From IMG/VR virus record IMGVR_UViG_3300015078_000002, positions 1-62,264 of that record: DNA of 62,264 bases. One strand, given 5' to 3'. Source of the DNA: a virus. Every line of letters begins with the position of its first letter. Within the stretch, counting starts at the first letter, position 1. Positions 508-60,864 of this stretch are shown here, piece by piece. The translations under genes and the position numbers were made by a program. Below the pieces are notes generated by a model. It was not told where the DNA came from, did not search any database, and saw nothing but the letters and a program-made list of their open reading frames with translations.

Positions 508-537
508 GTTTATAGCGTTGCTACGAGACGCGGTCAA
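508..537 (-). promoter_or_regulatory. Sigma70-like promoter candidate with ATAAAC-type -10 box
   Basis: Minus strand: TTGACC (537-532), 17-nt spacer, TATAAA (514-509), then 7 nt to ATG 501 with no Shine-Dalgarno. Spacer carries GTAGC-N6-ATAAAC (524-508). Confidence 0.5.
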
Positions 538-730
538 GCGCCGCGTACAAGTCATCCAGCGCCGTCACAGCGGCCTTGCGCGCCGCGAGCACCACGAAAA
601 CGGCTTCATCGCTCGAGCCGAGCAGGCTCACGCTCTCGTTGTGCGCTTGGTTCGCGGCTCGCAAAACCAGCGCTGCCTCGACCACGACCATCGCCTCACT
701 TGGCGTGTAATTTGTGGGCTGCATTCCCAT
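521..730 (-). CDS. Hypothetical protein (69 aa)
   Basis: ATG 730, MGMQPTNYTPSEAMVVVEAALVLRAANQ... Helical-looking, good GC3. The TAG stop lies inside the GTAGC half of the downstream motif. Confidence 0.6.
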   Translation of the reverse strand: MGMQPTNYTPSEAMVVVEAALVLRAANQAHNESVSLLGSSDEAVFVVLAARKAAVTALDDLYAALDRVS

Positions 731-735
731 TCTCG

Positions 736-765
736 GTTTACTCCACTTCAGACATCAGTTTGCAA
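736..765 (-). promoter_or_regulatory. Sigma70-like promoter candidate with GTAAAC -10 box
   Basis: Minus strand: TTGCAA (765-760), 18-nt spacer, GTAAAC (741-736), 5 nt, ATG 730. No SD. Confidence 0.4.
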
Positions 766-1138
766 CTACTTGATTACGCTCACCCCTCACCGTCACCATC
801 CCATCCCATGTATTCCTTAGATTCTCGGCACCTAGCACCACGGTCTTGTAGACCGGATGGCGCTGGCACCAACGTATAATCAGGCGGATACGGTCGAACG
901 CGTGACCGTCTAACCTGTGCATATCATTCAGTATCGACGCCCAACGTCGCACCGTATCATCGCGTAATCGTTGAGACGCTTTTGCGAGGAAACCGTGCGG
1001 ATTGTTCTGCACTATTAATGATGCGAGGATCCTGGCCAGCGCCACAGCCTTGCGGTCGATGCCTGGGTCAACCGACAGACGTGTCTGTTTTGCCACCTGG
1101 CTTGACCGTGGCGCTCGTTTTGTTGCTTTGGCGGTCAT
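755..1138 (-). CDS. Hypothetical protein (127 aa)
   Basis: ATG 1138 in an ATGA overlap with the upstream stop. MTAKATKRAPRSSQVAKQ...RIRLIIRWCQRHPVYK. The longer track start at 1219 was rejected. Confidence 0.65.
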   Translation of the reverse strand: MTAKATKRAPRSSQVAKQTRLSVDPGIDRKAVALARILASLIVQNNPHGFLAKASQRLRDDTVRRWASILNDMHRLDGHAFDRIRLIIRWCQRHPVYKTVVLGAENLRNTWDGMVTVRGERNQVVAN

Positions 1139-1422
1139 CGGTGAGGGTCCCGATTGCGATGCGTCTGAGGCGATTCTACTGGCGGTCGATAGGCCATGGC
1201 GTGACCGATCGACGGGCAACTCGCGGTCAGCCAGGCGAGATCGCGATGCGGCGCGCCGGCTGCGATCAGGACCCCGCGGATCTCGGCACGCGTGAAAGCG
1301 TCGACCGGTTCAACGGCCTCGATTCGGTTGAGTCGCGATTCCGTCTTCGTCGGTTCGTCGAGAGTGATCCCGACGGCTTCGAGCTCGAGCCGCAGGAACT
1401 CGCTTGCTCCTCGGAAGCTCAC
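1135..1422 (-). CDS. Hypothetical protein (95 aa)
   Basis: GTG 1422 in a GTGA overlap with the loader-gene stop. SFRGASEFLRLELEAVGITLDEPTK... This is the C-terminal in-frame part of track ORF 1135..2043. Confidence 0.6.
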   Translation of the reverse strand: MSFRGASEFLRLELEAVGITLDEPTKTESRLNRIEAVEPVDAFTRAEIRGVLIAAGAPHRDLAWLTASCPSIGHAMAYRPPVESPQTHRNRDPHR

Positions 1423-3415: not shown

Positions 3416-3637
3416 CTATGACCACGCGTCGACGAGCCGCTTGAGCGCCTCGATCGTGAGCGGGTTCGATCCACGAGACCGCTCGATGAACGATCGGAAC
3501 ACCTCGATATCCTCGAGGGTCGGCGGGACCATGACGAGCGCGGTGTACAGCGCGAGCGACGACTCCGGTGTCCCGTCGATCCCGGCCTGCCCGGCGACCC
3601 ATCCAGCGCGAAACGCATCGGTGATCGGATTCGTCAC
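3416..3637 (-). CDS. Hypothetical protein (73 aa)
   Basis: GTG 3637 preceded by AAGGAGG. TNPITDAFRAGWVAGQAGIDGTPESSLALY... Confidence 0.6.
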   Translation of the reverse strand: MTNPITDAFRAGWVAGQAGIDGTPESSLALYTALVMVPPTLEDIEVFRSFIERSRGSNPLTIEALKRLVDAWS

Positions 3638-3960
3638 TACACAGCCTCCTTGCGCGCGCGCACCTTGGTTGACCCCCACGAGCTCACCGCGACCTTGCCA
3701 CGCGAGACCTCGGAGATCGCGACCGCGAGGTCGCGGCCCGGGGTGTAGTACGCGTTGCGGGCGTTGTAGACCGAGCTGACGCTGATCTTCGTTTTGCGCC
3801 CGTTCGTGATCCGCTTCAGCGCCTCGCCGATCTTCTCGGCGACCGCGGCCGGCGTCAGGTTGCAGTGCGCGAGCCACGCGGCGAAATCGTTGGCCGGCGC
3901 GCGGCTATCGCGGGGCCGACCGCCGGGCTTGGACTTGTTCGTGAGCGGCAAACTTCGCAT
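3637..3960 (-). CDS. HTH DNA-binding protein (Cro/YdaS-like)
   Basis: ATG 3960, MRSLPLTNKSKPGG...LTPAAVAEKIG...ISVSSVYNARNA...AVAISEVSRGKV. HTH-like segment. First gene after a promoter candidate. Confidence 0.5.
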   Translation of the reverse strand: MRSLPLTNKSKPGGRPRDSRAPANDFAAWLAHCNLTPAAVAEKIGEALKRITNGRKTKISVSSVYNARNAYYTPGRDLAVAISEVSRGKVAVSSWGSTKVRARKEAV

Positions 3961-3966
3961 CCCGTT

Positions 3967-3995
3967 GTTTACCGCGTCAGAGTAGGGCGCGTCAA
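3967..3995 (-). promoter_or_regulatory. Sigma70-like promoter candidate with GTAAAC -10 box
   Basis: Minus strand: TTGACG (3995-3990), 17-nt spacer, GTAAAC (3972-3967), 6 nt, ATG 3960. No SD, so leaderless geometry. Confidence 0.5.
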
Positions 3996-5432: not shown

Positions 5433-5460
5433 TCAACCGATATGTAGCGCTGCGGTAAAC
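5433..5460 (+). promoter_or_regulatory. Plus-strand copy of the GTAGC-N6-GTAAAC motif with weak -35
   Basis: TCAACC (5433-5438), 5 nt, GTAGC-GCTGCG-GTAAAC (5444-5460). Lies in the divergent control region 5380-5551. Confidence 0.4.
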
Positions 5461-5512: not shown

Positions 5513-5529
5513 GTACCCCTACAGTAAAC
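5513..5529 (+). promoter_or_regulatory. Plus-strand copy of the GTAGC-N6-GTAAAC motif
   Basis: GTACC-CCTACA-GTAAAC, 22 nt upstream of ATG 5552. Confidence 0.4.
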
Positions 5530-9708: not shown

Positions 9709-9725
9709 GTAGTGTAGCTGTAAAC
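9709..9725 (+). promoter_or_regulatory. Plus-strand copy of the GTAGC-N6-GTAAAC motif upstream of the endolysin
   Basis: GTAGT-GTAGCT-GTAAAC. TAGCAT (9738-9743) lies 6 nt before ATG 9750. Confidence 0.4.
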
Positions 9726-9749: not shown

Positions 9750-10586
9750 ATGACAACGATCTTGCGAGCGCTCATGAACTGGCTCAACGCGCGACCGACA
9801 TCCTCGACGGCGCCCGACCCACCGCCCGCGCCGCCCGCGCCAGACCCAACGCCCGAGCCACTGCCTGTCAAGTCGCCGCTCTTTGTGGCCGGCCTTTGGC
9901 GTGGTTCGCGCTACGCATCCGCCAACCCGAGCCGCGTGGGCGCCCTCATCGATCCTGAGTTCGTCGTCGAGCACACGACCGACATGCACCCGGACGGCTG
10001 GAACGCGCTGGTCACCGCGTGGACAATGACGCCCGGGAATGGGGCATGTGCGCACTTCTTGATCGGTCGCACGCCCGAGCAGGGCGTCGTCCAATTCGTC
10101 CCGATCACGCGCAACGCGAACCACGCCGGCGGCACCACGCACGGCTGGTTCGTGATCAAGGGCGTGCGCTCCCACCCAAACCTGAAGGCGATCGGCATCG
10201 AGATCCACTGCGCCGGCCGCCTGCGAATGAGCGACGGGGTCTGGCGCTGGGGCGAGAACGACGGCAATGGCTGGGTCGCCAAGGGCGCCGCGATCCCGGA
10301 TGCCGAGGTAGAGCCGATCACCCCTTCGACCGGATTTCACCTACCGACCGCCTACCAGATCGCCATGCTGACCCGACTCGAGTTCGACCTCGCCGCCATG
10401 CTGCGCCCGCTGACCGACCGCAACTGGTTGCTGATTCCGAACCCACCGGACCACTGGCCAGCGTGGGCCAAGCCCCTACGCCCGATGGTCCCCGTGCTCG
10501 GCCATGTCCACCTGGACCCGACGAACCGCGAAGACCCCGGCCCGGCGTTGTGCGAGCGGATCTCAAAGTTGACATGGGGTACTTGA
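9750..10586 (+). CDS. N-acetylmuramoyl-L-alanine amidase endolysin (Amidase_2/PGRP type)
   Basis: HFLIGR...ANHAGG...AIGIEIHCAG...GHVHLDPTNREDPGP matches the T7-lysozyme/PGRP amidase signature. Pro-rich N-terminal linker. Confidence 0.8.
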   Translation: MTTILRALMNWLNARPTSSTAPDPPPAPPAPDPTPEPLPVKSPLFVAGLWRGSRYASANPSRVGALIDPEFVVEHTTDMHPDGWNALVTAWTMTPGNGACAHFLIGRTPEQGVVQFVPITRNANHAGGTTHGWFVIKGVRSHPNLKAIGIEIHCAGRLRMSDGVWRWGENDGNGWVAKGAAIPDAEVEPITPSTGFHLPTAYQIAMLTRLEFDLAAMLRPLTDRNWLLIPNPPDHWPAWAKPLRPMVPVLGHVHLDPTNREDPGPALCERISKLTWGT

Positions 10587-10611
10587 CAACGGTTTACTGC
10601 GACGCTACAAA
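10583..10611 (+). promoter_or_regulatory. Sigma70-like promoter candidate (leaderless geometry)
   Basis: TTGACA (10583-10588, overlapping the amidase TGA), 17 nt, TACAAA (10606-10611), 6 nt, ATG 10618. Spacer holds GTTTAC-N6-GCTAC (10592-10608). Confidence 0.55.
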
Positions 10612-10617
10612 CCGGAC

Positions 10618-10845
10618 ATGACGAAACGAACCCAAGCGGTGCTCGGCCTACTCGCCGAATCGGCGCAGCTCACCGCTCTCGAGATCGCGGACAAGCTGCA
10701 GCTCGCGACCGGCAACGCGGTGACGGCCTCGCTCGTGTCGATCTGCGATCAGGGGTTGGCGAACCGCGTGGCCGGCGCGGTCAGGCGCTACGAGGTGACC
10801 GCCCGCGGTCGCGAGGTGTGGCGTACCCTTCAGGAGCGGCCATGA
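10618..10845 (+). CDS. Winged-helix (MarR-like) DNA-binding protein
   Basis: MTKRTQAVLGLLAESAQLTALEIADKLQLATGNAVTASLVSICDQGLANRV... wHTH-like pattern. Confidence 0.5.
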   Translation: MTKRTQAVLGLLAESAQLTALEIADKLQLATGNAVTASLVSICDQGLANRVAGAVRRYEVTARGREVWRTLQERP

Positions 10846-12476: not shown

Positions 12477-12505
12477 ACGATACACGTTTACTGCGCCGCT
12501 GTCAC
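12477..12505 (-). promoter_or_regulatory. Sigma70-like promoter candidate
   Basis: GTGACA (12505-12500), 17 nt, TATCGT (12482-12477). Spacer holds ACAGC-N6-GTAAAC (12502-12486). Followed by an SD and ATG 12458. Confidence 0.4.
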
Positions 12506-34437: not shown

Positions 34438-34466
34438 TTGCGCCCGGTTTACTCCGGTGCTACAAA
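34438..34466 (+). promoter_or_regulatory. Sigma70-like promoter candidate (leaderless geometry) for the plus-strand cassette
   Basis: TTGCGC (34438-34443), 17 nt, TACAAA (34461-34466), 6 nt, ATG 34473. Spacer GTTTACTCCGGTGCTAC is nearly identical in layout to 10592-10608. Confidence 0.5.
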
Positions 34467-34472
34467 CTAAGC

Positions 34473-36334: not shown

Positions 36335-36351
36335 GGTTCATCTTGCCGCGT

Positions 36352-37335
36352 TTACTCCAGCACGTCTAGCGCGGCGCGAATGAAGCGGGCGGCTACCTGT
36401 GGGACTATCGCGTTTCCGTAGCCCCGCAGTAACCCCACACGGCCGGGAAGCCCTGCAACCAACGGCTCAAGTCCGGGTTCAATTGGCCGCGAGACTCCGT
36501 CGGAACAGGCGATCCATTCGGCGTTACACCATGGGTCATCTGGACCTGCAACGCGAGCGACGTCACTGATTCCCCGAGGCTGCTTCCATTCGCCCTCGAT
36601 TTCCGCTTGCGTGCGACCTGCGCCGCTGGGGTTCCACCCGCTTCGTGCGCCGCTGGGGTTGCCCAACTGGCAGCCGTTCCGAGACACGCCCCCCCTTCCG
36701 TGTGACTCGTCTTGCCCTTGGCGTCCCGAGCCAAAGCTGTCGGCCAGGCCGACAGCTTCGCGATGCCGCCGAGCTTCAATGTCTTCTGATCGTGGTCCCC
36801 GTTGCGGTAGCTGTAATCTCCGTCCCGCGTCTGCGGCGTAGGCCACGAAGTAGAGGCGCTGCCGGATGTGCGGCGCGCCGACGCCCGCAGCGCACAGATC
36901 CGATGCCCCGAAGGCGTAACCGCATCGTTCCAGGTCAGCGCGAACAAGATCGAGCCATCCAAGTCCGTCGCGGCTCGCAACCTGCTCTCCAAAGATCGTT
37001 GCAGGTCGGCACTCGCGGATGAGCTCGAACCATGCTGGCCAAAGATGTCGAGCGTCGCGTGTTCCGCCCCTCTTGCCCGCGTCGGAGAACGGCTGGCACG
37101 GACACGACCCGGTCCAGATGTCTGAGGTGTCTGGGACGCCTGCGAGTCTGAGTGCGTAAGACCAGCCGCCGATCCCAGCGAAGAAATGCCGCTGTCCCGG
37201 TCCGGCAACGTCATCTGCGGCGAGATCGACGATGCTCCTTCGATCAACAGTTCCGGCTGCGACGTGGCCTCTTGCGGTGAGGTTCTCGAGCCACCGTGCA
37301 GCGAACTTGTCGATCTCGTTGTAGAGCGCATGCAA
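36352..37335 (-). CDS. DNA (cytosine-5) methyltransferase
   Basis: FFAGIGG (motif I), SCPCQPFS (IV), IFGEQV (VI), IRQRLYFVA (VIII), GNAIVPQVA (X). TTG 37335 or ATG 37331 start. Confidence 0.85.
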   Translation of the reverse strand: MHALYNEIDKFAARWLENLTARGHVAAGTVDRRSIVDLAADDVAGPGQRHFFAGIGGWSYALRLAGVPDTSDIWTGSCPCQPFSDAGKRGGTRDARHLWPAWFELIRECRPATIFGEQVASRDGLGWLDLVRADLERCGYAFGASDLCAAGVGAPHIRQRLYFVAYAADAGRRLQLPQRGPRSEDIEARRHREAVGLADSFGSGRQGQDESHGRGGVSRNGCQLGNPSGARSGWNPSGAGRTQAEIEGEWKQPRGISDVARVAGPDDPWCNAEWIACSDGVSRPIEPGLEPLVAGLPGRVGLLRGYGNAIVPQVAARFIRAALDVLE

Positions 37336-37342: not shown

Positions 37343-37370
37343 GTTTACATCGCGACTACGAACCGATCAA
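37343..37370 (-). promoter_or_regulatory. Sigma70-like promoter candidate with GTAAAC -10 box
   Basis: TTGATC (37370-37365), 16 nt, GTAAAC (37348-37343), 7 nt to TTG 37335. Contains GTAGT-CGCGAT-GTAAAC. Confidence 0.45.
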
Positions 37371-42476: not shown

Positions 42477-42956
42477 TCAGTTGCTTCCGTCGCCGGTGAT
42501 GCACTGCGCGCTGGCCGTTCCATCTGCAGCCACGATCACGGTGCAGGTGAGCTGCACTCGACCGGCGAGCGGTAGATCGATCAGAACGCCGCACGTATAC
42601 GACGTACCGCCAGATGCGTGCGGCGCCCCCAGGACGCAGATGAACGAGGCCATCTGCGCGTTCGTGGCATCGGGGTGATCGTCGACCGCGGTTCCGAGAC
42701 TGGAGGTGCCGGCCGCGTAGGTATACTGGTCACCGAACCCGTGCCACGCGTCGCACGTGACAGTCCCGTCGGCGAGAGTGAGCGGGCCATAGAACGCACC
42801 GCGCGAGTCGTTCGCGCTGCCGTCGTGGCAGTTTTCGCCGTCGATGGCGATCTGCGTGCACTTCACGTTGGTGATAGGCTCGCAGGGATCGGCATGGGCG
42901 GTGGCAGTCGTGGCGATGGTCGCGAGCGCGAGCAAAAATGCAGTGATGATCTTCAT
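42477..42956 (-). CDS. Secreted Cys-containing protein (signal peptidase I type)
   Basis: MKIITAFLLALATIATTATAHA/DPCEP... 159 aa, 10 Cys. Confidence 0.7.
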   Translation of the reverse strand: MKIITAFLLALATIATTATAHADPCEPITNVKCTQIAIDGENCHDGSANDSRGAFYGPLTLADGTVTCDAWHGFGDQYTYAAGTSSLGTAVDDHPDATNAQMASFICVLGAPHASGGTSYTCGVLIDLPLAGRVQLTCTVIVAADGTASAQCITGDGSN

Positions 42957-42995
42957 GATATTTCCTTGTGATTCAATTGCCCACCATTGGGCAGT

Positions 42996-43039
42996 GCGCT
43001 GTCGGGACTCGAACCCGCTCTCCCAACGTCGACCAGCGC
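42996..43039 (-). other. tRNA-like T-arm minihelix (not a complete tRNA)
   Basis: Minus strand: GCGCTG-gtcgacgttgggagag-CGGG-TTCGAGT-CCCG-a-CAGCGC. A GGTTCGAGTCC T-loop consensus is closed by a 6-bp acceptor-like stem. D and anticodon arms are absent. Confidence 0.35.
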
Positions 43040-43047
43040 GCCAGCAA

Positions 43048-43410
43048 TCAGGGTGGCTCGCCCGCCACGCAGCCGATCGTTTGGCTATTCATGCAATCTC
43101 GGATACAGCCGTAGTAGTTCGGCGTGCAGACGGCCACGCAGTAGTTGATCCAGTTGTTTCCACCGTCGCTCGGGTCGGGACAGAACGCGCCCCAGTTCTC
43201 GTCCCCGCAGTTCGCCTCGCACTGCCAGTCGGCGTTGTCGTTGTGCTCGCACTCCACGCTACTGCCGCTGTCGTTCGCGCCAACGGCAACGCATGACCAC
43301 GGATGGCAACGGGGATGGTTCGGGCACTGCAACCCCTGGATGTCGGTGCTCTCGACGGTGCCATTGGCACATGCCGCGATCAAGATACAGACGAGTAACA
43401 TGGTCTTCAT
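43048..43410 (-). CDS. Cys-rich lipoprotein, paralog family member 3
   Basis: MKTMLLVCILIAAC (lipobox). 12 further Cys. ...EHNDNADWQCEANCGDE... C-terminus GCVAGEPP. Confidence 0.7.
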   Translation of the reverse strand: MKTMLLVCILIAACANGTVESTDIQGLQCPNHPRCHPWSCVAVGANDSGSSVECEHNDNADWQCEANCGDENWGAFCPDPSDGGNNWINYCVAVCTPNYYGCIRDCMNSQTIGCVAGEPP

Positions 43411-43559
43411 GGCGTGCCGGTTCCTCCATGGGTCGGCGTTCCGATCGTGCCGATGATGTTCGGCCGGTCGCCAGCGACCGGCGCGCCCGGAACTCGACGG
43501 CTCGCCTGGTTAACCGCGCATGCGGTCAGAGCTAACACAAGTGCCAGAATGATCTTCAT
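43407..43559 (-). CDS. Small lipoprotein (50 aa)
   Basis: MKIILALVLALTAC (lipobox), then a Pro/Gly-rich tail. GAGGAA SD. ATGA overlap with the next gene. Below the ORF-track cut-off. Confidence 0.55.
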   Translation of the reverse strand: MKIILALVLALTACAVNQASRRVPGAPVAGDRPNIIGTIGTPTHGGTGTP

Positions 43560-43598
43560 GTTGAAGTTCCTCGCCGCGTGGCTGCGACATGGTCCTCA

Positions 43599-43627
43599 TG
43601 TTATTCCTGCACAGTAAACTCGGTCAA
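43599..43627 (-). promoter_or_regulatory. Sigma70-like promoter candidate for the lipoprotein cluster
   Basis: TTGACC (43627-43622), 17 nt, ATAACA (43604-43599). GTTTAC (43619-43614) in the spacer. A leader of about 40 nt precedes ATG 43559. Confidence 0.45.
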
Positions 43628-43663
43628 CAGATCGGCATGCCGCGAAGTGATGCACTATCTCCT

Positions 43664-44411: not shown

Positions 44412-44440
44412 ACTCTAGTGCAGTAAACCGGTCGTGTCAA
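44412..44440 (-). promoter_or_regulatory. Sigma70-like promoter candidate (leaderless geometry)
   Basis: TTGACA (44440-44435, overlapping the terL TGA), 17 nt, TAGAGT (44417-44412), 6 nt, ATG 44405. GTTTAC in the spacer. Confidence 0.55.
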
Positions 44441-47786: not shown

Positions 47787-47799
47787 GACCCCTACGAGG

Positions 47800-48021
47800 T
47801 TACCCTACCGTCGGTCCGGTGTCACCCGGGTTTACAGCAGGGGCGGCATCGGGCAGCAGCTCGCGCACCGCCTCGACTACTGCGGCGCGCGCGTCGTGCA
47901 TTGCTCGGATGGCCAGCCGTTTGGTCCTACCCGACGCCGGTGGCACTACCGAGCACCAATCGCCCACGCGCTCGGCCGCCGACGCATACGCGTCGATGAG
48001 GTGCATGAACTCGCGCGCGGT
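47800..48021 (-). CDS. Hypothetical protein (73 aa; start TTG 48021 or ATG 48006)
   Basis: ...MHLIDAYASAAERVGDWCSVVPPASGRTKRLAIRAMHDARAAVVEAV... TTGA overlap with the upstream stop. Confidence 0.5.
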   Translation of the reverse strand, partial: TAREFMHLIDAYASAAERVGDWCSVVPPASGRTKRLAIRAMHDARAAVVEAVRELLPDAAPAVNPGDTGPTVG

Positions 48022-48975: not shown

Positions 48976-49226
48976 GAGGTCCCGTCCGTTTCGATTCGGT
49001 CCGCGAGCGCTCGCGCCTCGTCCGCGTCGAGCACCCTGCCCATCCATGGCTCGAGCGAGAACGTGAGATCGTCGGTGGCATAGCTGGACTCCATGCCCTG
49101 CACCTCGCCGTACTCGCGCACCCCGGCTCGGTTTATCGCTGTCAGGAGGTCAGGGGCGTCGACGATTACGATCCCGAGGAATTGCTGGTCCAGCTTGCCG
49201 GTGTACGAGAGCCACCAGGTTCCCAT
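48972..49226 (-). CDS. Hypothetical protein (84 aa)
   Basis: ATG 49226 after AAGGAG. MGTWWLSYTGKLDQQFLGIVIVDAPDLLTAINRAGVREYG... Confidence 0.6.
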   Translation of the reverse strand: MGTWWLSYTGKLDQQFLGIVIVDAPDLLTAINRAGVREYGEVQGMESSYATDDLTFSLEPWMGRVLDADEARALADRIETDGTS

Positions 49227-49765
49227 CACTCCTTGCCCCCGAGCCGCTTGTATTCGGCCAGCGCGCGCGACGCCTGCGCCATGAGGTGTGCCGTGTGAGC
49301 CGGCGCGTTGCCGGTTAGCTGCGCGCCGCGAAGCACCGTGGCCATCTGGTCGGCCAGCATCTTCCACCGGCCCAGCTTGCTCGGCGCGATCCCGCTGTCG
49401 GGGTCGAGCGGCCTGGCGCGCCCCGTGGCCTCCCATACGACGGCCTTGCGGGGTCCGACCCTGCAGCGTCGCAGCCCGACCTCGCGAATCAGGCCGCGCG
49501 ACTGGAGCTCGGTGAACCGACCGCGCCACGCGTTCGCGTTGGTGACATCGGGAATCGCCTTGAGGATCTCGCCACTGGTCGCCGGTCCGTGGTCGATCAG
49601 GGCGGCGAGTACCAGCATCTGTTTGCCGACCAGCAAGCCGTCTGCCACGAGCGCATCGAACACTTTGAGGAGATAGCGTTGGCGCGGTGAGTAGCACCCA
49701 CCGTTGAGGATTGGCGCTGGGTGACCGTTCGCCTCGGTGTCCGCGTTGCTCTGATCGGTCGGCAT
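49226..49765 (-). CDS. Winged-helix DNA-binding protein (179 aa)
   Basis: ...QMLVLAALIDHGPATSGEILKAIPDVTNANAWRGRFTELQSRGLIREVG... is MarR-like. ATG 49765 abuts a GTAAAC box (49771-49766). Confidence 0.5.
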   Translation of the reverse strand: MPTDQSNADTEANGHPAPILNGGCYSPRQRYLLKVFDALVADGLLVGKQMLVLAALIDHGPATSGEILKAIPDVTNANAWRGRFTELQSRGLIREVGLRRCRVGPRKAVVWEATGRARPLDPDSGIAPSKLGRWKMLADQMATVLRGAQLTGNAPAHTAHLMAQASRALAEYKRLGGKE

Positions 49766-49786
49766 GTTTACTGTCCGAGGATATAC

Positions 49787-49957
49787 TCAGCGCTTTGGCT
49801 CGTCAACCGGCTCGTGCATGCTCTTGAGTCCTTCGCGCCAGCACGTCGAGCACAGCGCCCACCCGCCCACCATCGTGAACATGTACATCGTGCGTTTACC
49901 GCAGTGGTCGCAGGTTAGGGTCGGGGCGCGATCCAGCGCTGATGTCCGTTGCGGCAT
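49787..49957 (-). CDS. Small Zn-ribbon protein (56 aa)
   Basis: MPQRTSALDRAPTLTCDHCGKRTMYMFTMVGGWALCSTCWREG... (CxxC...CxxC). Overlaps the upstream gene end by 43 nt. Start uncertain. Confidence 0.45.
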   Translation of the reverse strand: MPQRTSALDRAPTLTCDHCGKRTMYMFTMVGGWALCSTCWREGLKSMHEPVDEPKR

Positions 49958-51671: not shown

Positions 51672-51699
51672 GTTTACCGCGGCGCTGTGGACTTGTCAA
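51672..51699 (-). promoter_or_regulatory. Sigma70-like promoter candidate with GTAAAC -10 box
   Basis: TTGACA (51699-51694), 16 nt, GTAAAC (51677-51672, containing the upstream TAA stop), 11 nt, ATG 51660. Includes ACAGC-GCCGCG-GTAAAC. Confidence 0.5.
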
Positions 51700-52047: not shown

Positions 52048-52078
52048 GTTTATAGCACGGCTACGTTTGGACGGTCAA
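52048..52078 (-). promoter_or_regulatory. Sigma70-like promoter candidate (leaderless geometry)
   Basis: TTGACC (52078-52073), 18 nt, TATAAA (52054-52049), 6 nt, ATG 52042. Includes GTAGC-CGTGCT-ATAAAC (52064-52048). Confidence 0.55.
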
Positions 52079-52810: not shown

Positions 52811-54778
52811 CTACGTCGCGTCGATGCCGGTCGAGATCCCTATCACCTTGCCCCCGAGCGTGAAGGTCACGCCCACGCCTGCGAAAACCACCGTCGGTGT
52901 TACTGGCGACACCGCACCGTCGAGGGCAATCACGGTGACGTAGGTGCGGTCGCCGCCGGGCTGCGTGCGGTCGCCGCCGGGCTGCGCGCAGTCCAATCGC
53001 CATGCTCCGGTAAAGTCTGAGTTGGTGCGGAAGTCGAACGTGGTCCACTGCCCCGCCGCGGGCGCAACGCGGGTCACGGTCATCGTGTGGCCGCCCGCGG
53101 TCACGGTCGCCACAGCACCGGCGATTACCGGCTGGGTCGGGACCACGAGCTGCCAGGTCTGCGCCAGCGATGGCGTGGTGACCACGTGGTCCTGGACGAT
53201 GAACACGTCGGGCTGCAGCCACAGGATTTGCCGAGCGACCAACACCACGTTGGGGTTGCCCGCGTACGCCGCGGTCAGGTCGATCGACGCGAACATGTAG
53301 CCCGGTCCCGAGCGAAGCGTGAACACGCGCGACGTCGTGCCCGATTTCTGCGGGCACGAGCCGACCGCGCCGAGCCGCACCAGGCTGTGTGCCTCGGGGA
53401 GTCCGACCAGCGATCCCGACTGGACCACGCCACCCTTGCTGGCGATCACCGCGTCGTACGCCATCCAGCCGCCCTTGTAGATCATCAGCGAGCCCTGGTC
53501 CTGGTGCGCGTGGCTCTGCGTGTACGGGCCCGCGATCATACTGAGCATGGTGGCGGTCTTCGCCCACGAGCTTCGCGCGTTGATCTGTCCGATCCCGCTG
53601 GCGTAGCGCACGAGCGGCAGGTCGAGCGGAACGGGCGCAACGCTCGGGGCGAATACGACGTCGTAGCCGAGCATGAAGCCGCTCTGCATCGACGGCACGC
53701 TTGATGCTGCGAGCAGCGCCAGCGCGCGGGCGGATTCGGGGGCCGCTGGATAGAGCGCGACGAGCTCGAGCATGTAGGAGCGCTCGTAGTCGAACAGCGC
53801 CGCCGTGCTGTCGCGGGACTGGTCGCCGATCGGCAGCTTGCGGTCCAGCGTCGGCACGATCTGCGAGATCGCGGTCAGGATCGAGGCGCGCGTGTGCGGG
53901 GTCAGATCCGCGAGCGATTCGCCGGTGCTCCACTGCCACAGCGCGTAGAGCTCGAACAGGTTGCGCAGCGCGACGCCGTAGCCGGTACCCTCGCGCGAGC
54001 CGCCGTCCGCCTGCTCCGCGGTCATGTACGGGATGAGCCGGCCCACGATGCGCTCGTTGAGCTTCGCGATCCACGACGCGGCCTGCGGGTTCTCGCCCTG
54101 CGTCGCCAGCCCAAACAGCATCGTGGCGCGCGTGAACGAGTAGTAGTAGTTGTCCCCGGGGTCGTCCGTCGCCCAGCCCGTCCACGTCGCCGTCTTGCCG
54201 CCCCACGATGCCGTGGTCGGGTTCCAAACGTTGCTCACCGCCTGGTTGGCGTAGGCGATCCACCTCGAGCGCTGCGAGCTCGTGAGCGTCGTGGAGCACC
54301 AGTCATAGACCAGCGCGAGGTCGCCGATCATCTCGCCGACCTGCAGGTAACTGTCACCGGCGACCGCCGGGACCATGCCTTGCGCGATGGCCGACTCGGC
54401 CGCAGCGACCTGCGCATCGATCACAGCAACGGCCTTGGCCGCGTATCTCGGATCGCCACCGAGCGCGCTGAGCAGAGCGCCGTTCCACGCGTCGAGCCCC
54501 CAGATGTCCTCGCCTCCGAGCCACCGGTCGACGATCCCCTTCCAGCGCGCGCCGGCCGGCGAGGTCAGCGACGCCTTGAGCCGCGGGGCTTGCGAGCCCA
54601 GCATGATGCGCGGGTGCCCGGTCGGCACGATCACGGGCGTGGGCGGCGGCGGCGGCGGTATTGGCGGCGGACTAGGAACTGGATCGGGCGGCGGAGCGAC
54701 GATGGGTAGCGCCTCGAGCAGCGCGTCGATGCCGGCGGTCGCCGCGCTGATCAGTTTGTCGCGCGTGTCGTCGGGCAT
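52811..54778 (-). CDS. Heparinase II/III-like polysaccharide lyase (depolymerase candidate)
   Basis: ATG 54778. Pro-rich N-terminal linker, W/Y-rich helical region, then ...GPYTQSHAHQDQGSLMIYKGGWMAYD..., resembling the HxHxDxGSF core of the Hepar_II_III family (recall level). Confidence 0.55.
   Translation of the reverse strand: MPDDTRDKLISAATAGIDALLEALPIVAPPPDPVPSPPPIPPPPPPTPVIVPTGHPRIMLGSQAPRLKASLTSPAGARWKGIVDRWLGGEDIWGLDAWNGALLSALGGDPRYAAKAVAVIDAQVAAAESAIAQGMVPAVAGDSYLQVGEMIGDLALVYDWCSTTLTSSQRSRWIAYANQAVSNVWNPTTASWGGKTATWTGWATDDPGDNYYYSFTRATMLFGLATQGENPQAASWIAKLNERIVGRLIPYMTAEQADGGSREGTGYGVALRNLFELYALWQWSTGESLADLTPHTRASILTAISQIVPTLDRKLPIGDQSRDSTAALFDYERSYMLELVALYPAAPESARALALLAASSVPSMQSGFMLGYDVVFAPSVAPVPLDLPLVRYASGIGQINARSSWAKTATMLSMIAGPYTQSHAHQDQGSLMIYKGGWMAYDAVIASKGGVVQSGSLVGLPEAHSLVRLGAVGSCPQKSGTTSRVFTLRSGPGYMFASIDLTAAYAGNPNVVLVARQILWLQPDVFIVQDHVVTTPSLAQTWQLVVPTQPVIAGAVATVTAGGHTMTVTRVAPAAGQWTTFDFRTNSDFTGAWRLDCAQPGGDRTQPGGDRTYVTVIALDGAVSPVTPTVVFAGVGVTFTLGGKVIGISTGIDAT
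52944..52985. repeat. Exact 21-bp tandem duplication inside the lyase gene
   Basis: GTGCGGTCGCCGCCGGGCTGC at 52944-52964 and 52965-52985. Encodes QPGGDRT twice. Confidence 0.95.
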
Positions 54779-54936: not shown

Positions 54937-54953
54937 GTGGCCACGCTGTAAAC
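54937..54953 (+). promoter_or_regulatory. Orphan plus-strand copy of the GTAGC-N6-GTAAAC motif
   Basis: GTGGC-CACGCT-GTAAAC in the 393-nt non-coding region. No convincing downstream plus-strand gene. Confidence 0.3.
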
Positions 54954-55034: not shown

Positions 55035-55064
55035 ACAACACCCCGGGCTCTGTCGGGGTGTTGT
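55035..55064 (-). terminator. Hairpin, terminator candidate
   Basis: ACAACACCCCG (55035-55045), 8-nt loop, CGGGGTGTTGT (55054-55064). On the minus strand it is followed by GUCGUUUGUGG. Lies 108 nt after the stop at 55172. Confidence 0.45.
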
Positions 55065-56890: not shown

Positions 56891-56918
56891 GTTTACCGCG
56901 GCGATACGACGGCGTCAA
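56891..56918 (-). promoter_or_regulatory. Sigma70-like promoter candidate with GTAAAC -10 box
   Basis: TTGACG (56918-56913), 16 nt, GTAAAC (56896-56891), 8 nt, ATG 56882. Includes GTATC-GCCGCG-GTAAAC. Abuts the dnaN stop. Confidence 0.5.
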
Positions 56919-58016
56919 TCATAGGCGCATCGGCATCGCCACGCAGCGATGACTCTTGTCCCCGAACGGCATGATCAGCGCGGGGTCCACGTCGGTGCCG
57001 AGCGCGATCACAGCCTGTTCGCTCGTCATCGTCGAGAGTATCTCCACCAGGTACTTCGGGTTGAACCCGATCGACAGGTGCGGGCCGCTGCACTCGGCGC
57101 CGATCTCGTCGGAGACCTGCCCCATGTCCGGGTGCTCGGACACGAGGGACAGACCGTCCGCCGACGTCGTGATCTTCACGCCGCGCGTCTCGCTGGTCAT
57201 CAGCTGCACGCGCTTGAGCGACTCGATCAGGCGCAGCCGGTCGACGGTGACCAGCGTCTTGTTGGCGATCCCGTCGAACATCGTGCGCAGGTTCGGGAAC
57301 TCGGCGGCGATCAGCTTGGCGGCGATCGTGAGCGTGCCGACCTGCACGAATAGGATCGGCCCGGCGACGCCGACCATGGGCGCCTCGTTGCTCTCGGCGA
57401 TCTTGCGGATCTCGCCCAGCCCCTTGCGCGGCACCAGAACACCATTGTCGAACACCGGGCCGGCCGCGATGCGCTCGACCACCGAGGCCCGATGCCCGTC
57501 GGTCGCCGATGCGCGCATGACCTTGCCGTCGCTCTCGAGCAGCACGCCCGCGAGGTTGAACTTCGCGTCATCCAGCGACGTCGCGAAGATCGTGCGGTCG
57601 ATCAGGTCGCGCAGTACGATCGGGTCGACCTTGACCAGCTTGGCCTCGGTCGCGATCGGGACGCGAGGGAAGTCGCGGTCCGACATGCCGAGCAACTTGT
57701 ACTTCGCCTTCCCGCTCTTGATCTCGGCGTGGTTACCGTCGCTCTTCTTGAGCGTCACATCCTCGCCTGGCGCGTTGGCCACGAGCTCGTAGAGGCTCTT
57801 GGCGTCAAGCGCGATCCCGCCCTCGACGGCGTTGGCGCTCTTGAGCTCGGCGGTCAGCGAGACGTTGAGGTCGGTGGCGGCGACCAGGATCTGCCCCTTG
57901 CCGTGCGTGCGCAGCACGACGTTGCCCAGCATCGGCATCACGTTTTTCTTGTCCGCGATGCCCTGCGCCAGCTTGAGGCCGCGGAGAAACTCGAGCTTTG
58001 CGATTCGGAATTCCAT
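56919..58016 (-). CDS. dnaN: DNA polymerase III beta subunit (sliding clamp)
   Basis: 365 aa. MEFRIAKLEFLRGLKLAQGIADKKNVMPMLGNVVL...ATDGHRAS...IGFNPKYLVEIL... Canonical three-domain clamp pattern. Confidence 0.85.
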   Translation of the reverse strand: MEFRIAKLEFLRGLKLAQGIADKKNVMPMLGNVVLRTHGKGQILVAATDLNVSLTAELKSANAVEGGIALDAKSLYELVANAPGEDVTLKKSDGNHAEIKSGKAKYKLLGMSDRDFPRVPIATEAKLVKVDPIVLRDLIDRTIFATSLDDAKFNLAGVLLESDGKVMRASATDGHRASVVERIAAGPVFDNGVLVPRKGLGEIRKIAESNEAPMVGVAGPILFVQVGTLTIAAKLIAAEFPNLRTMFDGIANKTLVTVDRLRLIESLKRVQLMTSETRGVKITTSADGLSLVSEHPDMGQVSDEIGAECSGPHLSIGFNPKYLVEILSTMTSEQAVIALGTDVDPALIMPFGDKSHRCVAMPMRL

Positions 58017-58022: not shown

Positions 58023-58052
58023 AACGTAGCACTACGGTAAACGCGGCGTCAA
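58023..58052 (-). promoter_or_regulatory. Sigma70-like promoter candidate (leaderless geometry) for dnaN
   Basis: TTGACG (58052-58047), 18 nt, TACGTT (58028-58023), 6 nt, ATG 58016. Spacer carries GTTTAC-CGTAGT-GCTAC (58042-58026). Confidence 0.5.
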
Positions 58053-58565: not shown

Positions 58566-59437
58566 CAGAACAGCGTCCTTTGTGCCGGCGACTCGACCGC
58601 CCGCAGGTTCGCCACCGCCTGCTTGTAGTACGACGCCTTGAGCTCGGCGCCCACGAACTTGCGGCCCATCTCGAGCGCGACGTAGCCCTCGGACCCGATG
58701 CCGGCGAAGGGCGAGAGCACGGTGTCACCGGGGTTGGACCACAGGTGTATCGCGCGGCGGATGACCTCCAATTGAAGCGGACACACGTGTCTCTCGTCGG
58801 CATCCTCGCGTGCGCTGCGGAATTGGAGCGTGTCGCTGGGGTCGATATCCATCCACACCGGCGACGCGTACCGCTGCCAGAGCGTGACCGGCAGATCGGT
58901 GTCGTCGTGGGTCACGGGCTCGGGGTTGTCGCCGGGCTTGCCCATGGTCACCAGGTAGTCGGCGAGTCCCATGCGAGAGCGGCAGCTGTCTTTCTTGATC
59001 TGCTTGTGGAGCAGCCCGAGCGCCTTGGTCCGTTGCATCTGCACAACAGGGTCTTTCCAGATGCAGACCTCGGAGTGATAGAGAAAGCCCGCCGCCTTGA
59101 ACAGCCTGATCAGGTCGCCGCGGAAGTCCGACAACTCGATGCGACCGAATGACGCCTTGCTAAGTGGCAGCAGCATGCAGTGGAAGCTGACAAGCCGACC
59201 GGGCTTGAGCACACGGAATAACTCGCCCGCCATCCAGACCATTTGCTCGAAGAATTGCGAGTGATCCGAGTTCCCGAAATCGCGTGGCGACGCTGAATAT
59301 GTATAAAGGCTCGCAAAGGGAGGACTAAACACCGAATAATGCAGACTGCCAGTCGGCAACCCAGCGAGCACGTCGACGCAATCGCTGTGATAGAGGGCGA
59401 ACCGGTCCGTGATGGTCTGGTCGAGAACGTCGGTCAT
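58565..59437 (-). CDS. DNA methyltransferase, beta-class N4-cytosine/N6-adenine type
   Basis: SPPF (motif IV) is N-terminal and FAGIGSEG (motif I) C-terminal, the order of the N6_N4_Mtase family. Base specificity is not decidable from sequence alone. Confidence 0.8.
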   Translation of the reverse strand: MTDVLDQTITDRFALYHSDCVDVLAGLPTGSLHYSVFSPPFASLYTYSASPRDFGNSDHSQFFEQMVWMAGELFRVLKPGRLVSFHCMLLPLSKASFGRIELSDFRGDLIRLFKAAGFLYHSEVCIWKDPVVQMQRTKALGLLHKQIKKDSCRSRMGLADYLVTMGKPGDNPEPVTHDDTDLPVTLWQRYASPVWMDIDPSDTLQFRSAREDADERHVCPLQLEVIRRAIHLWSNPGDTVLSPFAGIGSEGYVALEMGRKFVGAELKASYYKQAVANLRAVESPAQRTLF

Positions 59438-59439
59438 GC

Positions 59440-59456
59440 GTTTACTCTCGCACTAC
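59440..59456 (-). promoter_or_regulatory. GTAGC-N6-GTAAAC motif copy at a gene junction
   Basis: GTAGT-GCGAGA-GTAAAC. The TAG of the helicase gene is inside GTAGT. GTAAAC ends 2 nt before ATG 59437. Confidence 0.4.
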
Positions 59457-60847
59457 GGCGCGCCCGACGTCAACCACGACGGCACGATCATGCGCAAGCC
59501 CGGCTGATACGGGTTCCACTCGCGCCCCAGCCCCTTCACTTCGGCCCGCACCGCCGCGCCCACGTGCGCCGTCATCTCGCGCTGCATGTTGGCGTAGTCC
59601 GCCTCCTTGCGCTGGTAGTTCCGCACGATCTCGCTCTCGAGCTCGGACCGCACCATGTCCACCACTACCTCGTGCCTCTGCCCGAAGCGCCAGAACCTTC
59701 TGATCGCCTGGAAAGTCCGCTCGAACGAATGCGACGCTCCTACGAAGATCGTCCGGTGGCAACGCTGTAGGTTGAGCCCGAACCCCAGCATCGAGCTCTT
59801 GCCAATCATGCATCGTACCTCGCCGCGCAGCCACGCCGCGATCATCTCCTCGGCTTCGTCGTCCGGCGTGGAGCCCTCGATGCTCACGCAATCGTCGCCG
59901 AGCGCGCGCTCCATGGCGTGCTGCTCGTCGTTCAGGTCGACCCACACCACGAACTGCTCGCCCGGCTCTCGAGCAATGATCTCGGCTGACTTCGCGACAC
60001 GGGTGTCAATCGTCGCCCGCTTGGCGGCGCGCTGCTCATCGAGCGTCCGAGCCTGTAGCGCGAACAACGTCCCCGACGCGGCGATGTCATGGCCCGTTGC
60101 GGGTACCACGTGCTCGACCATGCGGAGCGGCGGCAAGCTGTAGGCCCCGTCGTCGTAGCCGAGATCGCTGGGCTTGGCCACCACCGCGCCCCACGTGGCG
60201 ACCCAGCGCCAGAACGGGGTGACCGCGTGGCCCTTGACCCGCCAGTCCTGCGTGCTGCCGCCATCGTGCACAAAAAACTCCGCGAGCATCTCGGTCCGCG
60301 ACTTGAGGCCCAGGAACTCGCTGTGGTTGCCGAGTTCGGTGAAGTCATTCGGCGCCGGCGTCGCTGTGCCGGCCAGCCTGAACGGGGTGTTGCGGAATGC
60401 CTCGATGATCTGCGTCCTCTGCTTGCCGTCAAAGGACTTCAGGCGCGACGATTCGTCTAGGATCACGCCGACGAAGTTGCTCGGATCGAACTTGTGCAGC
60501 TTCTCGTAGTTGGTGATCACGATTCGCTGCGCTGGGTCGTCAGCGTGCAGGTACCGAGCGTCGACGCCGAACCGCTCACCCTCGGCTGCGATCTGCGGAC
60601 CCACGGCGAGCGGCGCGAGGATCAACACGCGACCGCGCTCGGCCACGTGGCGCGCGTACTCGAGCTCCATGGCCGTCTTGCCCAGTCCCGTCGCCGCCAA
60701 CTGCGCGGCCCGCCCGCGGCGCAACGCCCATCGCACGAGGTCGCGCTGGTGCGGGAACAGGTGCGGCGCCAGGCCGTCGGGGCCGACGTCGAACCCTACG
60801 GCGGGGGCTGCGGCGCTCTTGCGAGCGATGATCTCCTCGTAGGTCAC
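59453..60847 (-). CDS. SNF2/DEAD-like superfamily 2 helicase
   Basis: GTG 60847. ...ATGLGKT (I), ...ILDESS (II), ...LAGTATPAPN (III), C-terminal helicase lobe ...SSMLGFGLNLQ... The track ORF N-terminal extension was rejected. Confidence 0.8.
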   Translation of the reverse strand: MTYEEIIARKSAAAPAVGFDVGPDGLAPHLFPHQRDLVRWALRRGRAAQLAATGLGKTAMELEYARHVAERGRVLILAPLAVGPQIAAEGERFGVDARYLHADDPAQRIVITNYEKLHKFDPSNFVGVILDESSRLKSFDGKQRTQIIEAFRNTPFRLAGTATPAPNDFTELGNHSEFLGLKSRTEMLAEFFVHDGGSTQDWRVKGHAVTPFWRWVATWGAVVAKPSDLGYDDGAYSLPPLRMVEHVVPATGHDIAASGTLFALQARTLDEQRAAKRATIDTRVAKSAEIIAREPGEQFVVWVDLNDEQHAMERALGDDCVSIEGSTPDDEAEEMIAAWLRGEVRCMIGKSSMLGFGLNLQRCHRTIFVGASHSFERTFQAIRRFWRFGQRHEVVVDMVRSELESEIVRNYQRKEADYANMQREMTAHVGAAVRAEVKGLGREWNPYQPGLRMIVPSWLTSGAP

Positions 60848-60864
60848 GTTTACAGCACTACTAC
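60848..60864 (-). promoter_or_regulatory. GTAGC-N6-GTAAAC motif copy at a gene junction
   Basis: GTAGT-AGTGCT-GTAAAC directly abutting GTG 60847. The TAG stop of the upstream gene is inside GTAGT. Confidence 0.4.

Follow-up and report, generated by a model that had tools for sequence, protein, structure and literature searches.

A dispersed dyad element at predicted leaderless promoters of an uncultured phage genome, probably the operator of a phage-encoded regulator

Known dispersed sites and the present element

Regulation of an entire phage genome by copies of a single dispersed site is already known from the stoperators of L5-type phages and the conserved inverted repeats (CIRs) of phiC31, and is suspected for the repeats of Cluster O mycobacteriophages. 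Here we describe a recurrent 17-bp motif, RYAGYNNNNNNRTAAAC (RYAGY-N6-RTAAAC), found at gene starts throughout the viral record IMGVR_UViG_3300015078_000002, the whole of which (62,264 bp, 66% GC) is called the window below. We hold with moderate confidence, on the basis of sequence comparisons, that a dimeric winged-helix regulator encoded by the phage uses this element as its operator, laid over host-type promoters.

In Cluster A mycobacteriophages (L5 gp71; the TipsytheTRex repressor), asymmetric 13-mer stoperators are bound in one orientation by a monomer with two DNA-binding domains (PMC9283540). The likeness to the window is that a single short site recurs more than 20 times in promoters and very short gaps genome-wide, with one phage protein believed to govern every transcription unit through it (PMC9283540). 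The present element differs from stoperators in being a 9-3-9 dyad used in both orientations, one arm of which would serve as the −10 of leaderless promoters, and neither an integrase (about 50 open reading frames (ORFs) scanned against Pfam and 20 against PHROGs) nor a homologous repressor was seen here in general ORF scans, which included no direct comparison with gp71. Cluster O mycobacteriophages carry a 17-bp dyad, TGTTCGG-N3-CCGAACA, whose function is not established and about one third of whose copies are inside genes (PMC4351075). It shares with the present element the dyad form, a 3-bp centre and tens of mostly intergenic copies, in phages whose SigA-like promoters give leaderless mRNAs, but these repeats appear to have been mapped apart from the predicted SigA-like promoters (PMC4351075), whereas here nearly all copies coincide with a promoter. 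The sequences of the two repeats are unrelated.

In phiC31, in work attributed to Ingham et al. 1994 and Wilson et al. 1995, the c repressor is said to bind CIRs at many intergenic places, its own promoter included. The resemblance would lie in a conserved inverted repeat at many intergenic places of a high-GC genome; sequence, host phylum and repressor family differ, and phiC31 is reportedly temperate, with an integrase and early promoters that are not sigma70-like. Cluster K mycobacteriophages reportedly carry start-associated sequences (SAS), a short motif right upstream of many start codons at a fixed distance that includes the ribosome-binding site. By contrast, the distance here is 0–27 nt, and the element has no Shine-Dalgarno character and is tied to promoters of predicted leaderless genes. 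Finally, the dyad operators of lambda (OR/OL), P22 and 434 cover the −10 and the spacer and occlude polymerase, and lambda CI has a dual action at PRM. The present dyad likewise lies over −10 and spacer, with a copy near −42 that could activate, but lambda-type operators are few and clustered at one or two control regions, whereas about 20 dispersed promoters here have one copy each. What seems distinctive in the window is that one operator arm would be the −10 of leaderless promoters, in an uncultured lineage that probably infects Myxococcota.

Architecture and promoter context of the element

The motif is far more frequent than expected, a point that the initial annotation had left to be computed: where dinucleotide shuffles predict 0.04 exact matches to RYAGYNNNNNNRTAAAC, the window has 12; GTAAAC occurs 24 times (16 on the minus and eight on the plus strand) against 4.4 expected, and GCNRYAAAC 22 times against 4.5. 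The 15 full copies first listed were exact at 12 positions, while those at 5513, 54937 and 56891 each have one mismatch in the left half (GTACC, GTGGC and GTATC, respectively). All six copies listed as GTAAAC only were correctly placed; five more had been overlooked, two of which (47830 and 49894) are intergenic with a GC-N-G prefix. A weight matrix trained on the 15 sites (cut-off of at least 12 bits) gave 19 matches against 0–3 in shuffles, a partly circular result as 15 of them are the training sites; the four new sites were 36418(+), 7334(−), 36259(+) and 40715(+), and a weaker match was found at 27595(−) with 11.3 bits. Column counts refined the consensus to GTAGC-NNN-GC-N-GTAAAC.

The placement of the motif near gene starts was also borne out: each of the 15 copies occupies an intergenic gap or a gene edge, in a window of which about 84% is coding according to our gene calls, which rest on a codon-usage heuristic. 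The TAG of GTAG is indeed the stop codon of the preceding gene at 60848 and 59440, as is the TAA of GTAAAC at 51672, and at 12486 a TGA overlaps the first base of the motif.

The 17-mer is the core of a ~21-bp imperfect dyad, GTTTRYAGC-N3-GCNRYAAAC, with a 9-3-9 layout in which the central N3 is free and the half-site GCNRYAAAC conserved; it comprises the full half-site GCNRTAAAC together with the inner five bases (RTAGC) of the other half, the GC at motif positions 9–10 being conserved. Copies 10592 and 34447 are preceded by GTTT and thereby form the 21-bp dyads GTTTGTAGC-N3-GCAGTAAAC. Across 37 sites, information was confined to ~21 bp, the three central bases and position 11 were free, and no position at a fixed distance from the −35 was conserved. 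Perfect 21-bp palindromes were found in relatives (loci and contigs of other phages carry L-numbers as labels): GTTTATAGCACCGCTATAAAC at L002:3549-3569, GTTTATAGCACTGCTATAAAC at L013:9789-9809 and GTTTGTAGCGATGCTGCAAAC at L013:1221-1241; near-perfect ones occur in L012, L009 and at 10592 and 34447 of the window. The perfect palindrome is present in only two IMG/VR contigs. Those at L002 3549 and L013 9789 each serve a single correctly spaced promoter; the −35-proximal arm is thus dispensable for the promoter and nevertheless mirrors the other arm. As in dyad operators, a pair of inverted half-sites stands at a constant distance around a free centre, with one arm degenerate in many copies.

At least 15 sites overlap a predicted sigma70-type promoter of the form TTGACN-N17/18-TAnnnN (Table 1). 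In the typical site, TTGACN is followed by a 17–18 nt spacer, a TA-initial hexamer and, 5–7 nt further on, the start codon, a distance seen in 12 of the 17 listed promoters. As the start codon comes just after the −10, the genes behind such promoters would be expressed from leaderless or near-leaderless mRNAs; most genes downstream of the element leave no room for a Shine-Dalgarno sequence. The −35 box is TTGACN at 12 sites and TTGCGC, TTGCGA, TTGATC, TTGCAA or GTGACA at five more, and the −10 boxes are mostly TA-initial (TATAAA, TACAAA, TACGTT, TAGAGT, TAACAT, TAAACN), often without the final T, two sites having GAGAGT or TAGTGC instead. Among 16 TTGAC sites with a plausible −10 (16–18 nt) and an ATG or GTG (33–39 nt), 12 carry the box, and the four box-less ones have poor −10s. 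For ORFs of 60 codons or more, the start codon falls most often 35–36 nt past TTGAC (nine cases against about 1.4 per offset elsewhere), and an independent sigma70 consensus scan of 42–62 kb returned seven promoters against 1.9 expected, four of which contain or abut the box.

Table 1. Copies of the element, associated promoters and candidate regulator genes (window coordinates, except in the last row).
Feature	Position or promoter	Strand	Remarks
GTAGTAGTGCTGTAAAC copy	60848..60864	−	holds stop TAG of upstream ORF
Helicase promoter (Pfam)	TTGACC(60883-60878)-N17-TAGTGC(60860-60855)-N7-GTG 60847	−	overlapped by 60848 copy
GTAGTGCGAGAGTAAAC copy	59440..59456	−	holds helicase stop TAG
N6/N4 DNA methylase promoter	TTGACG(59473-59468)-N18-GAGAGT(59449-59444)-N6-ATG 59437	−	overlapped by 59440 copy
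Inverted copy	58026..58042	+	in spacer of minus-strand dnaN promoter
dnaN promoter	TTGACG(58052-58047)-N18-TACGTT(58028-58023)-N6-ATG 58016	−	start fixed by MEF N-terminus matching host DnaN
GTATCGCCGCGGTAAAC copy	56891..56907	−	TTGACG(56918-56913)-N17-TAAACT(56895-56890)-N7-ATG 56882; −35 begins directly behind dnaN stop codon
Orphan GTGGCCACGCTGTAAAC copy	54937..54953	+	between hairpin 55035-55064(−) and 655-aa heparinase-like gene; no convincing −35/−10 on either strand
GTAGCCGTGCTATAAAC copy	52048..52064	−	TTGACC(52078-52073)-N18-TATAAA(52054-52049)-N6-ATG 52042
ACAGCGCCGCGGTAAAC copy	51672..51688	−	holds stop TAA of upstream gene
PadR gene promoter	TTGACA(51699-51694)-N17-TAAACG(51676-51671)-N10-ATG 51660	−	contains 51672 copy
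Candidate binder, PadR family, 89 aa	51391..51660	−	Pfam E = 1e-9; site in own promoter
Half-site GCGGTAAAC	49894..49910	−	5 nt upstream of ATG; no recognisable −35
MarR-like winged-helix gene promoter	TTGACG(49806-49801)-N17-TATCCT(49783-49778)	−	
Half-site CAGTAAAC	49766..49782	−	at inferred start site; abuts ATG 49765 of MarR-like winged-helix gene
Candidate binder, MarR-like winged-helix, 179 aa (wHTH-179)	49226..49765	−	
Half-site GCTGTAAAC	47830..47846	−	followed by CCGG-GTGACA-N17-TAACCT; upstream of small-terminase-like (TerS) gene
Inverted half-site	44412..44428	+	GTTTAC on minus strand; in spacer of TTGACA(44440-44435)-N17-TAGAGT(44417-44412)-N6-ATG 44405
Inverted GTAAAC box	43614..43619	+	in spacer of TTGACC(43627-43622)-N18-TAACAT(43603-43598)-N7-ATG 43590; this ATG opens a short ORF only, lipoprotein-like gene next
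GTAGTCGCGATGTAAAC copy	37343..37359	−	TTGATC(37370-37365)-N17-TAAACT(37347-37342); upstream of C5-methylase region
Variant GTAGCCCCGCAGTAACC	36418..36434	+	weight matrix, 19 bits
Half-site GGAGTAAAC	36350..36366	−	upstream of scaffold gene (ATG 36334); no −35
21-bp dyad GTTTGTAGCACCGGAGTAAAC	34447..34467	−	divergent region beside capsid gene
Plus-strand promoter	TTGCGC(34438-34443)-N17-TACAAA(34461-34466)-N6-ATG 34473	+	spacer and −10 covered by 34447 dyad
ACAGCGGCGCAGTAAAC copy	12486..12502	−	over −35 and spacer of GTGACA(12505-12500)-N17-TATCGT(12482-12477); downstream gene has Shine-Dalgarno leader
21-bp dyad GTTTGTAGCGTCGCAGTAAAC	10592..10612	−	over spacer and −10 of plus-strand promoter of 75-aa winged-helix gene
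Promoter of 75-aa winged-helix gene	TTGACA(10583-10588)-N17-TACAAA(10606-10611)-N6-ATG 10618	+	
Candidate binder, 75-aa winged-helix 'transcriptional regulator' phrog_2440	10618..10845	+	full-dyad promoter
GTAGTGTAGCTGTAAAC copy	9709..9725	+	24 nt upstream of amidase ATG 9750; over −35 region of possible TAGCAT −10
One-mismatch GTACCCCTACAGTAAAC copy	5513..5529	+	22 nt upstream of ATG 5552; no −35 recognised
Inverted copy	5444..5460	+	in spacer of minus-strand TTGCGA(5469-5464)-N17-TACATA(5446-5441)-N7-ATG 5433
Half-site GCGGTAAAC	3967..3983	−	TTGACG(3995-3990)-N18-TAAACA(3971-3966)-N5-ATG 3960 (Cro-like helix-turn-helix (HTH), 107 aa)
Regulator-like gene preceded by site, Cro-like HTH	3637-3960	−	
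Half-site GGAGTAAAC	736..752	−	TTGCAA(765-760)-N16-GAGTAA(743-738)-N7-ATG 730
GTAGCAACGCTATAAAC copy	508..524	−	TTGACC(537-532)-N17-TATAAA(514-509)-N7-ATG 501
Variant sites GCTACAAAC in relative L198	3851, 6081, 9637, 14051, 20735		

In the commonest layout the −35 is followed after 1–4 nt by the 21-bp element, the last arm of which (TATAAA, TACAAA or TAAACN) coincides with the −10, so that the span is about −26 to −6. In the inverted copies the conserved arm GTTTAC lies 2–6 nt past the −35 and the weaker arm, GCTAY, begins the −10. In other registers the element covers the −35 (12486 and 9709), follows the −10 or reaches the start itself (59440, 60848 and 49766), or precedes a weak GTGACA −35 by about 5 nt (the TerS site 47830); the copies at 36350, 49894, 5513 and 54937 have no recognisable promoter. 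The element is thus used in either orientation and, with respect to −35 and −10, in five or more registers. At least seven copies are inverted relative to the gene that they precede, and about one third of all copies point against the local gene. The three inverted copies previously placed in promoter spacers (10592, 34447 and 58026) do lie there (TTGACN/TTGCGC-N17/18-TAC), and the GTAAAC-only copies 43614 and 44423 are inverted in the same way. Of two copies thought to have no start codon nearby, the one at 5444 serves the minus-strand ATG 5433, and only that at 54937 remains an orphan.

Three promoters in the oriC region of one genome of Kofleriaceae, a family of Myxococcota considered below as the candidate host group, provide a comparison. 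Those of rpmH and carD have the form TTGACN-N17-TAnnnN, that of yidD has a TTGACG box, and their spacers are unrelated to the element; the oriC region contains two GTAAAC, the chance expectation, neither of them as a promoter-spacer element.

The initial annotation had proposed a phage-specific promoter or −10 element as one possible function, and the overlap with at least 15 promoters agrees with this in part. In its pure form, GCNRTAAAC with the upstream RTAGC would be a lineage-specific −10 or extended −10 plus a spacer signature, working with no repressor and read by the host holoenzyme alone or after its modification by a phage sigma-like or 'appropriating' factor. Consistent with this, TAAACN or TATAAA stands exactly 17–18 nt from the −35 in most forward sites, and the arm variant tracks the −35 distance: with TAAAC at 19–20 nt the arm is TATAAAC and TATAAA is the −10, and with TAAAC at 17–18 nt the arm is GGTAAAC and TAAACN is the −10. 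In addition, half-sites with no −35 precede the late genes for scaffold and TerS, which recalls the −35-independent late promoters of T4, TATAAATA. However, at least six sites in the window and most sites in relatives have GTTTAC in the upstream spacer on the opposite strand, where it is unable to be a −10; the perfect palindromes lie at unidirectional promoters; the register varies, with 49766 at the start site and 12486 over the −35; TAAACN is devoid of the usual T at −7; and scans of the non-structural ORFs against Pfam and PHROGs revealed neither an RNA polymerase nor a complete sigma gene. A plain promoter needs no fixed spacer sequence and the candidate-host promoters have none; an operator fits better, as the best account of GTAGC, GC and GTTTAC together, and the view that the GTAGC half goes beyond a plain sigma70 promoter is upheld. 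We consider a promoter function with no regulator rather unlikely.

The distribution over short junctions also recalls stoperator-type immunity, in which a prophage repressor would block initiation and elongation at many short intergenic sites. Many copies do lie in very short junctions, some with stop codons and abutting starts (60848, 59440 and 51672), copies occur across the early, lysis and structural regions, and the distribution is as described for L5, with more than 20 sites in promoters and short intergenic spaces (PMC9283540). Stoperators are nevertheless asymmetric and bound to one orientation (PMC9283540), whereas the present element is dyad-symmetric and in about one third of its copies faces against the local gene. 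Nearly every junction copy can equally belong to a promoter with proper spacing, the ORF scans brought up neither an integrase nor any further hint of lysogeny, and the closer relatives L198 and L199 are on short, phage-sized contigs. An immunity system of this kind thus appears quite improbable to us.

A further proposal of the initial annotation, an RNA-level signal, found little favour. The motif would then act in the mRNA as a hairpin, a processing site or a translation signal, which would suit its position near start codons and the inner dyad AGC-N3-GCT, able to form a short stem at 508 and 10592. Ten sites gave differing minimum-energy folds and no common one, with z-scores from −2.0 to +1.1, the third inner-stem pair (A3 with position 11) is possible in just 15 of the 37 sites, and no Rfam family matched. 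Moreover, the motif does not have the purine-rich character of a Shine-Dalgarno sequence, it stands at variable distances from the start codon, it lies mostly upstream of the inferred transcription start, and inverted copies would give a different RNA. A function in the transcript is scarcely credible on these data.

Several other explanations were considered and set aside. GTAAAC resembles the −35 motifs TGAAAC and TGTAAC of extracytoplasmic function (ECF) sigma factors, but no conserved −10 was found 16–17 nt downstream, and the starts are too close. A target of a type I restriction or methylase system was rejected as copies are confined to intergenic DNA, and DnaA, iteron or parS sites were rejected as the copies are dispersed and ParAB genes were not found in the scans. 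The true palindromes of relatives speak against a CII-like direct repeat GTA-N8-GTA, and a general host −10 variant is contradicted by the absence of the motif from the Kofleriaceae region and from other phages with host-like genes.

One of the few candidate promoters of the window that are devoid of the box lies at 3277-3235 (−), TTGACT-N18-GAGCGT-N7-ATG, upstream of a ribbon-helix-helix gene region, and at the equivalent place in L196 and L197 there is a TTGACA, again with the box absent. Beside the ribbon-helix-helix gene, in ~1 kb with no called gene, positions 2466-2627 are made up of short tandem repeats, with GGATCC/GGAACC units and one of 23 nt; they might serve as an origin of replication or as an array of binding sites.

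Conservation in related phages and candidate regulators

A search with the major capsid protein found about 200 relatives, many on contigs of 50–65 kb. The full motif is present in nine of the 11 compared loci with a capsid identity of at least 65%, and also in the early regions L195–L197, so that conservation in related genomes, which the initial annotation had suggested checking, was found; it is absent from about 20 loci with a capsid identity of 60% or less. In 80 helicase-related loci of other lineages it stays at chance level, with one copy each in six AT-rich loci, and in three unrelated siphoviruses that share the host-like 655-aa gene described below it is not in promoter spacers and reaches at most chance level. 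Single-protein scans of IMG/VR (DnaN, PadR, terminase, tail protein) gave nothing useful or unrelated phages only, and a metagenome scan with a winged-helix protein alignment gave no contig beyond one already compared. Distant capsid relatives have few leaderless promoters in their structural regions; a search there for an alternative repeated motif yielded k-mer counts dominated by codon-bias words, and their direct-repeat families were low-complexity coding repeats.

The early regions of L196 and L197 have about 10 sites each, with correctly spaced TTGACN. Orthologous sites are kept upstream of the scaffold, Cro-like, wHTH-179 and TerS genes, where flanks are unalignable and proteins 45–60% identical. 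The promoters of the Cro-like gene in L196 and L197 retain TTGACG and GCGGTAAAC, and the scaffold-gene site 36350 has a conserved ortholog in L006 (7780-7830), L007, L008 and L034. At the TerS gene the promoter region (47790-47846, minus strand; L196:11553-11620; L197:11434-11500) reads GCNGTAAAC-CC(C)G-GTGACA-N17/18-TAnnnT, and the box is centred near −42, a register that is unlike all other sites and is kept in L196 and L197. The 67.8-kb contig L198 (DATIPA010000256.1, 69% capsid identity) has a variant, GCTACAAAC, in five of its six sites, and this variant half-site suggests that site specificity drifts between lineages.

Some sites coincide with mosaic junctions. At the scaffold junction (36335-36370), homology among relatives starts at the stop codon abutting the left edge of the site, the upstream genes being unrelated. 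In the closest relatives (89–90% capsid identity), the promoter TTGACA-ta-GTTTACCGCGGTGC-TATGTT-N6-ATG recurs almost unchanged before small 'moron' genes on the opposite strand, and the genes behind it are mutually unrelated. In the window, a C5 cytosine methylase gene (36352-37335, minus strand) is inserted between the MuF-like and scaffold genes; at this place L006, L008 and L034 have different, mostly opposite-strand, moron genes with the stereotyped GTTTACCGCGGTGC promoter. Such observations could mean that the sites are a by-product of history, that is, a copied promoter cassette or a 'boundary' sequence for module exchange with no further regulatory role, as the abrupt start of homology and the almost identical moron promoters would suggest. 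Conservation is position-specific, though: N3 and N11 vary freely while flanking positions are fixed, and the element persists across genomes whose proteins are 45–75% identical and whose intergenic flanks cannot be aligned. This pattern indicates selection on the sites, not recent copying, and we regard a purely historical origin as very unlikely; cassette copying or boundary recombination may explain how the sites spread.

The initial annotation had also suggested an operator of one of the encoded regulators. The dyad, both orientations and several registers make this the best fit; the identity of the binder is divided among several candidates (Table 1). Among them, only wHTH-179 was found in all five motif-bearing genomes in which the region was examined (the window, L002, L013/L195, L196 and L197). 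Where an intergenic gap precedes its gene, in four of them (the window, L013/L195, L196 and L197), a site lies directly upstream; in L002 the gene overlaps the upstream ORF. No PadR homologue was found in the examined parts of the early regions L195–L197. PadR/LmrR operators are inverted repeats of the form ATGT-N8-ACAT, and the element has no ATGT/ACAT arms, which makes PadR less favoured yet possible, as not all members of this family have the same operator. The literature yielded nothing relevant on PadR proteins acting as phage repressors, and PDB sequence searches with both winged-helix proteins nothing significant. Because of its presence in all five genomes, the site upstream of it, the missing PadR homologue in L195–L197 and the unlike form of PadR operators, wHTH-179 is ranked first, with low confidence, and PadR and the 75-aa winged-helix protein are the alternatives.

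According to the operator reading that we favour, a phage-encoded dimeric winged-helix protein would bind the element and, where this lies over spacer and −10, keep host RNA polymerase off the promoter; a single protein would in this way control nearly all phage transcription units, its own gene included. This reading rests on dyads and palindromes at one-way promoters, both orientations, several registers and lineage-specific variants. Repression would be the likeliest main effect because most copies have the span given above, which would exclude RNA polymerase. Copies in short gene junctions (13–15 bp) may be roadblocks to elongation, and the copy near −42 possibly activates the TerS promoter.

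Several points weigh against such an operator. All transcription starts and start codons are inferred, and the gene calls heuristic. The invariant arm GCNRTAAAC is usually also the −10, so that its conservation perhaps partly reflects promoter function, and the second arm is weak (RTAGC only) or missing in many copies, a poor fit to a symmetric dimer. Half-sites with no −35 (36350, 49894, 5513, 54937 and 47830) call for some further role, for instance as roadblocks or in activation. Integrase and partition genes were not found in the ORF scans (Pfam/PHROGs), so a global repressor of the prophage kind is not obviously needed. Candidates other than PadR have sub-threshold winged-helix matches only, and the single-sequence AlphaFold model of wHTH-179 is unreliable (predicted local distance difference test score, pLDDT, of 45).

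Alternatively, one small regulator might switch the timing of expression across the genome of a non-temperate phage that infects uncultured Myxococcota, or might act by a MotA-like 'appropriation' of host polymerase, ideas that we judge unlikely. As a timing switch, it would shut about 15 leaderless early and middle promoters whose −10 is the element arm and turn on −35-poor late promoters (small terminase, scaffold) from copies upstream or at the −10; in the appropriation variant, a spacer-bound factor would recruit and re-programme host polymerase. If true, either would be a promoter grammar undescribed for any phage of Myxococcota.

The phage genome, its probable host and implications

The window encodes an SU10-type major capsid protein, portal, terminase and tail genes, an amidase, a helicase, RusA, two DNA methylases, a YqaJ exonuclease and a DnaN clamp, with the majority of genes on the minus strand. 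A megablast of 20 kb against GenBank phages found no nucleotide relative, and protein matches there are remote only. No tRNA and no Rfam family were found in the window. Positions 1-219 (CGTAGC x36) and 62172-62264 (GCCGTC x15) belong to one hexamer tandem array, which on the minus strand codes for Gly-Asp/Tyr-Gly repeats; as both ends lie within it, the contig probably represents an entire genome that is circularly permuted and opened within the array. The array holds 36 'GTAGC' words that bear no relation to the motif. At 41283-43663 (minus strand), between the portal and terminase regions, several small, cysteine-rich ORFs follow one another, their N-termini resembling signal peptides or those of lipoproteins (e.g., MKTMLLVCILIAACANG).

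The DnaN clamp (56919-58016, minus strand) is ~55% identical to the chromosomal DnaN of metagenome-assembled genomes (MAGs) of Kofleriaceae and other Myxococcota, and no homologue among phages is closer than this host-type DnaN; it looks like a host-derived gene and is, from such comparisons, the best clue to the host. The 655-aa heparinase-like protein (52811-54778, minus strand) is ~50% identical to Kofleriaceae proteins, some annotated as heparinase II/III-like; our own scan found no Pfam domain in it, and several homologues have PF07940. It is also 62–65% identical to tail-module proteins of the unrelated siphoviruses L003–L005 and may be a depolymerase moving between phages of one host group. 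Its gene here is in the early region, downstream of a strong hairpin at 55035-55064 (−). One related phage contig was binned in a Kofleriaceae MAG, and these three observations together suggest that the host is probably a member of Myxococcota.

In genome collections, closer relatives are on short, phage-sized contigs, L198 and the 13.7-kb L199 (42% capsid identity), and these matches were binned to Xanthobacteraceae, in the case of L198, and Zixiibacteriota. The genome-collection scan revealed no integrated close relative; weak matches in larger contigs (L200 and L201) fell outside that check.

These results overturn no current view and are useful and testable more than surprising. The lineage has no cultured member, and nearly all of its genes are of unassigned function. 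The analysis provides a ready map of its transcription units, with about 17 predicted promoters, most of them for leaderless mRNAs, and points to a single candidate regulator–operator pair that can be tested in vitro without the host. The location of sites at mosaic junctions bears on module exchange between these phages. If the operator reading holds, the AT-rich operator arm would double as the −10, an economical design in a 66% GC genome, and the phage would add a case from outside the Actinobacteria to the few phages that control their whole genome via one dispersed site.

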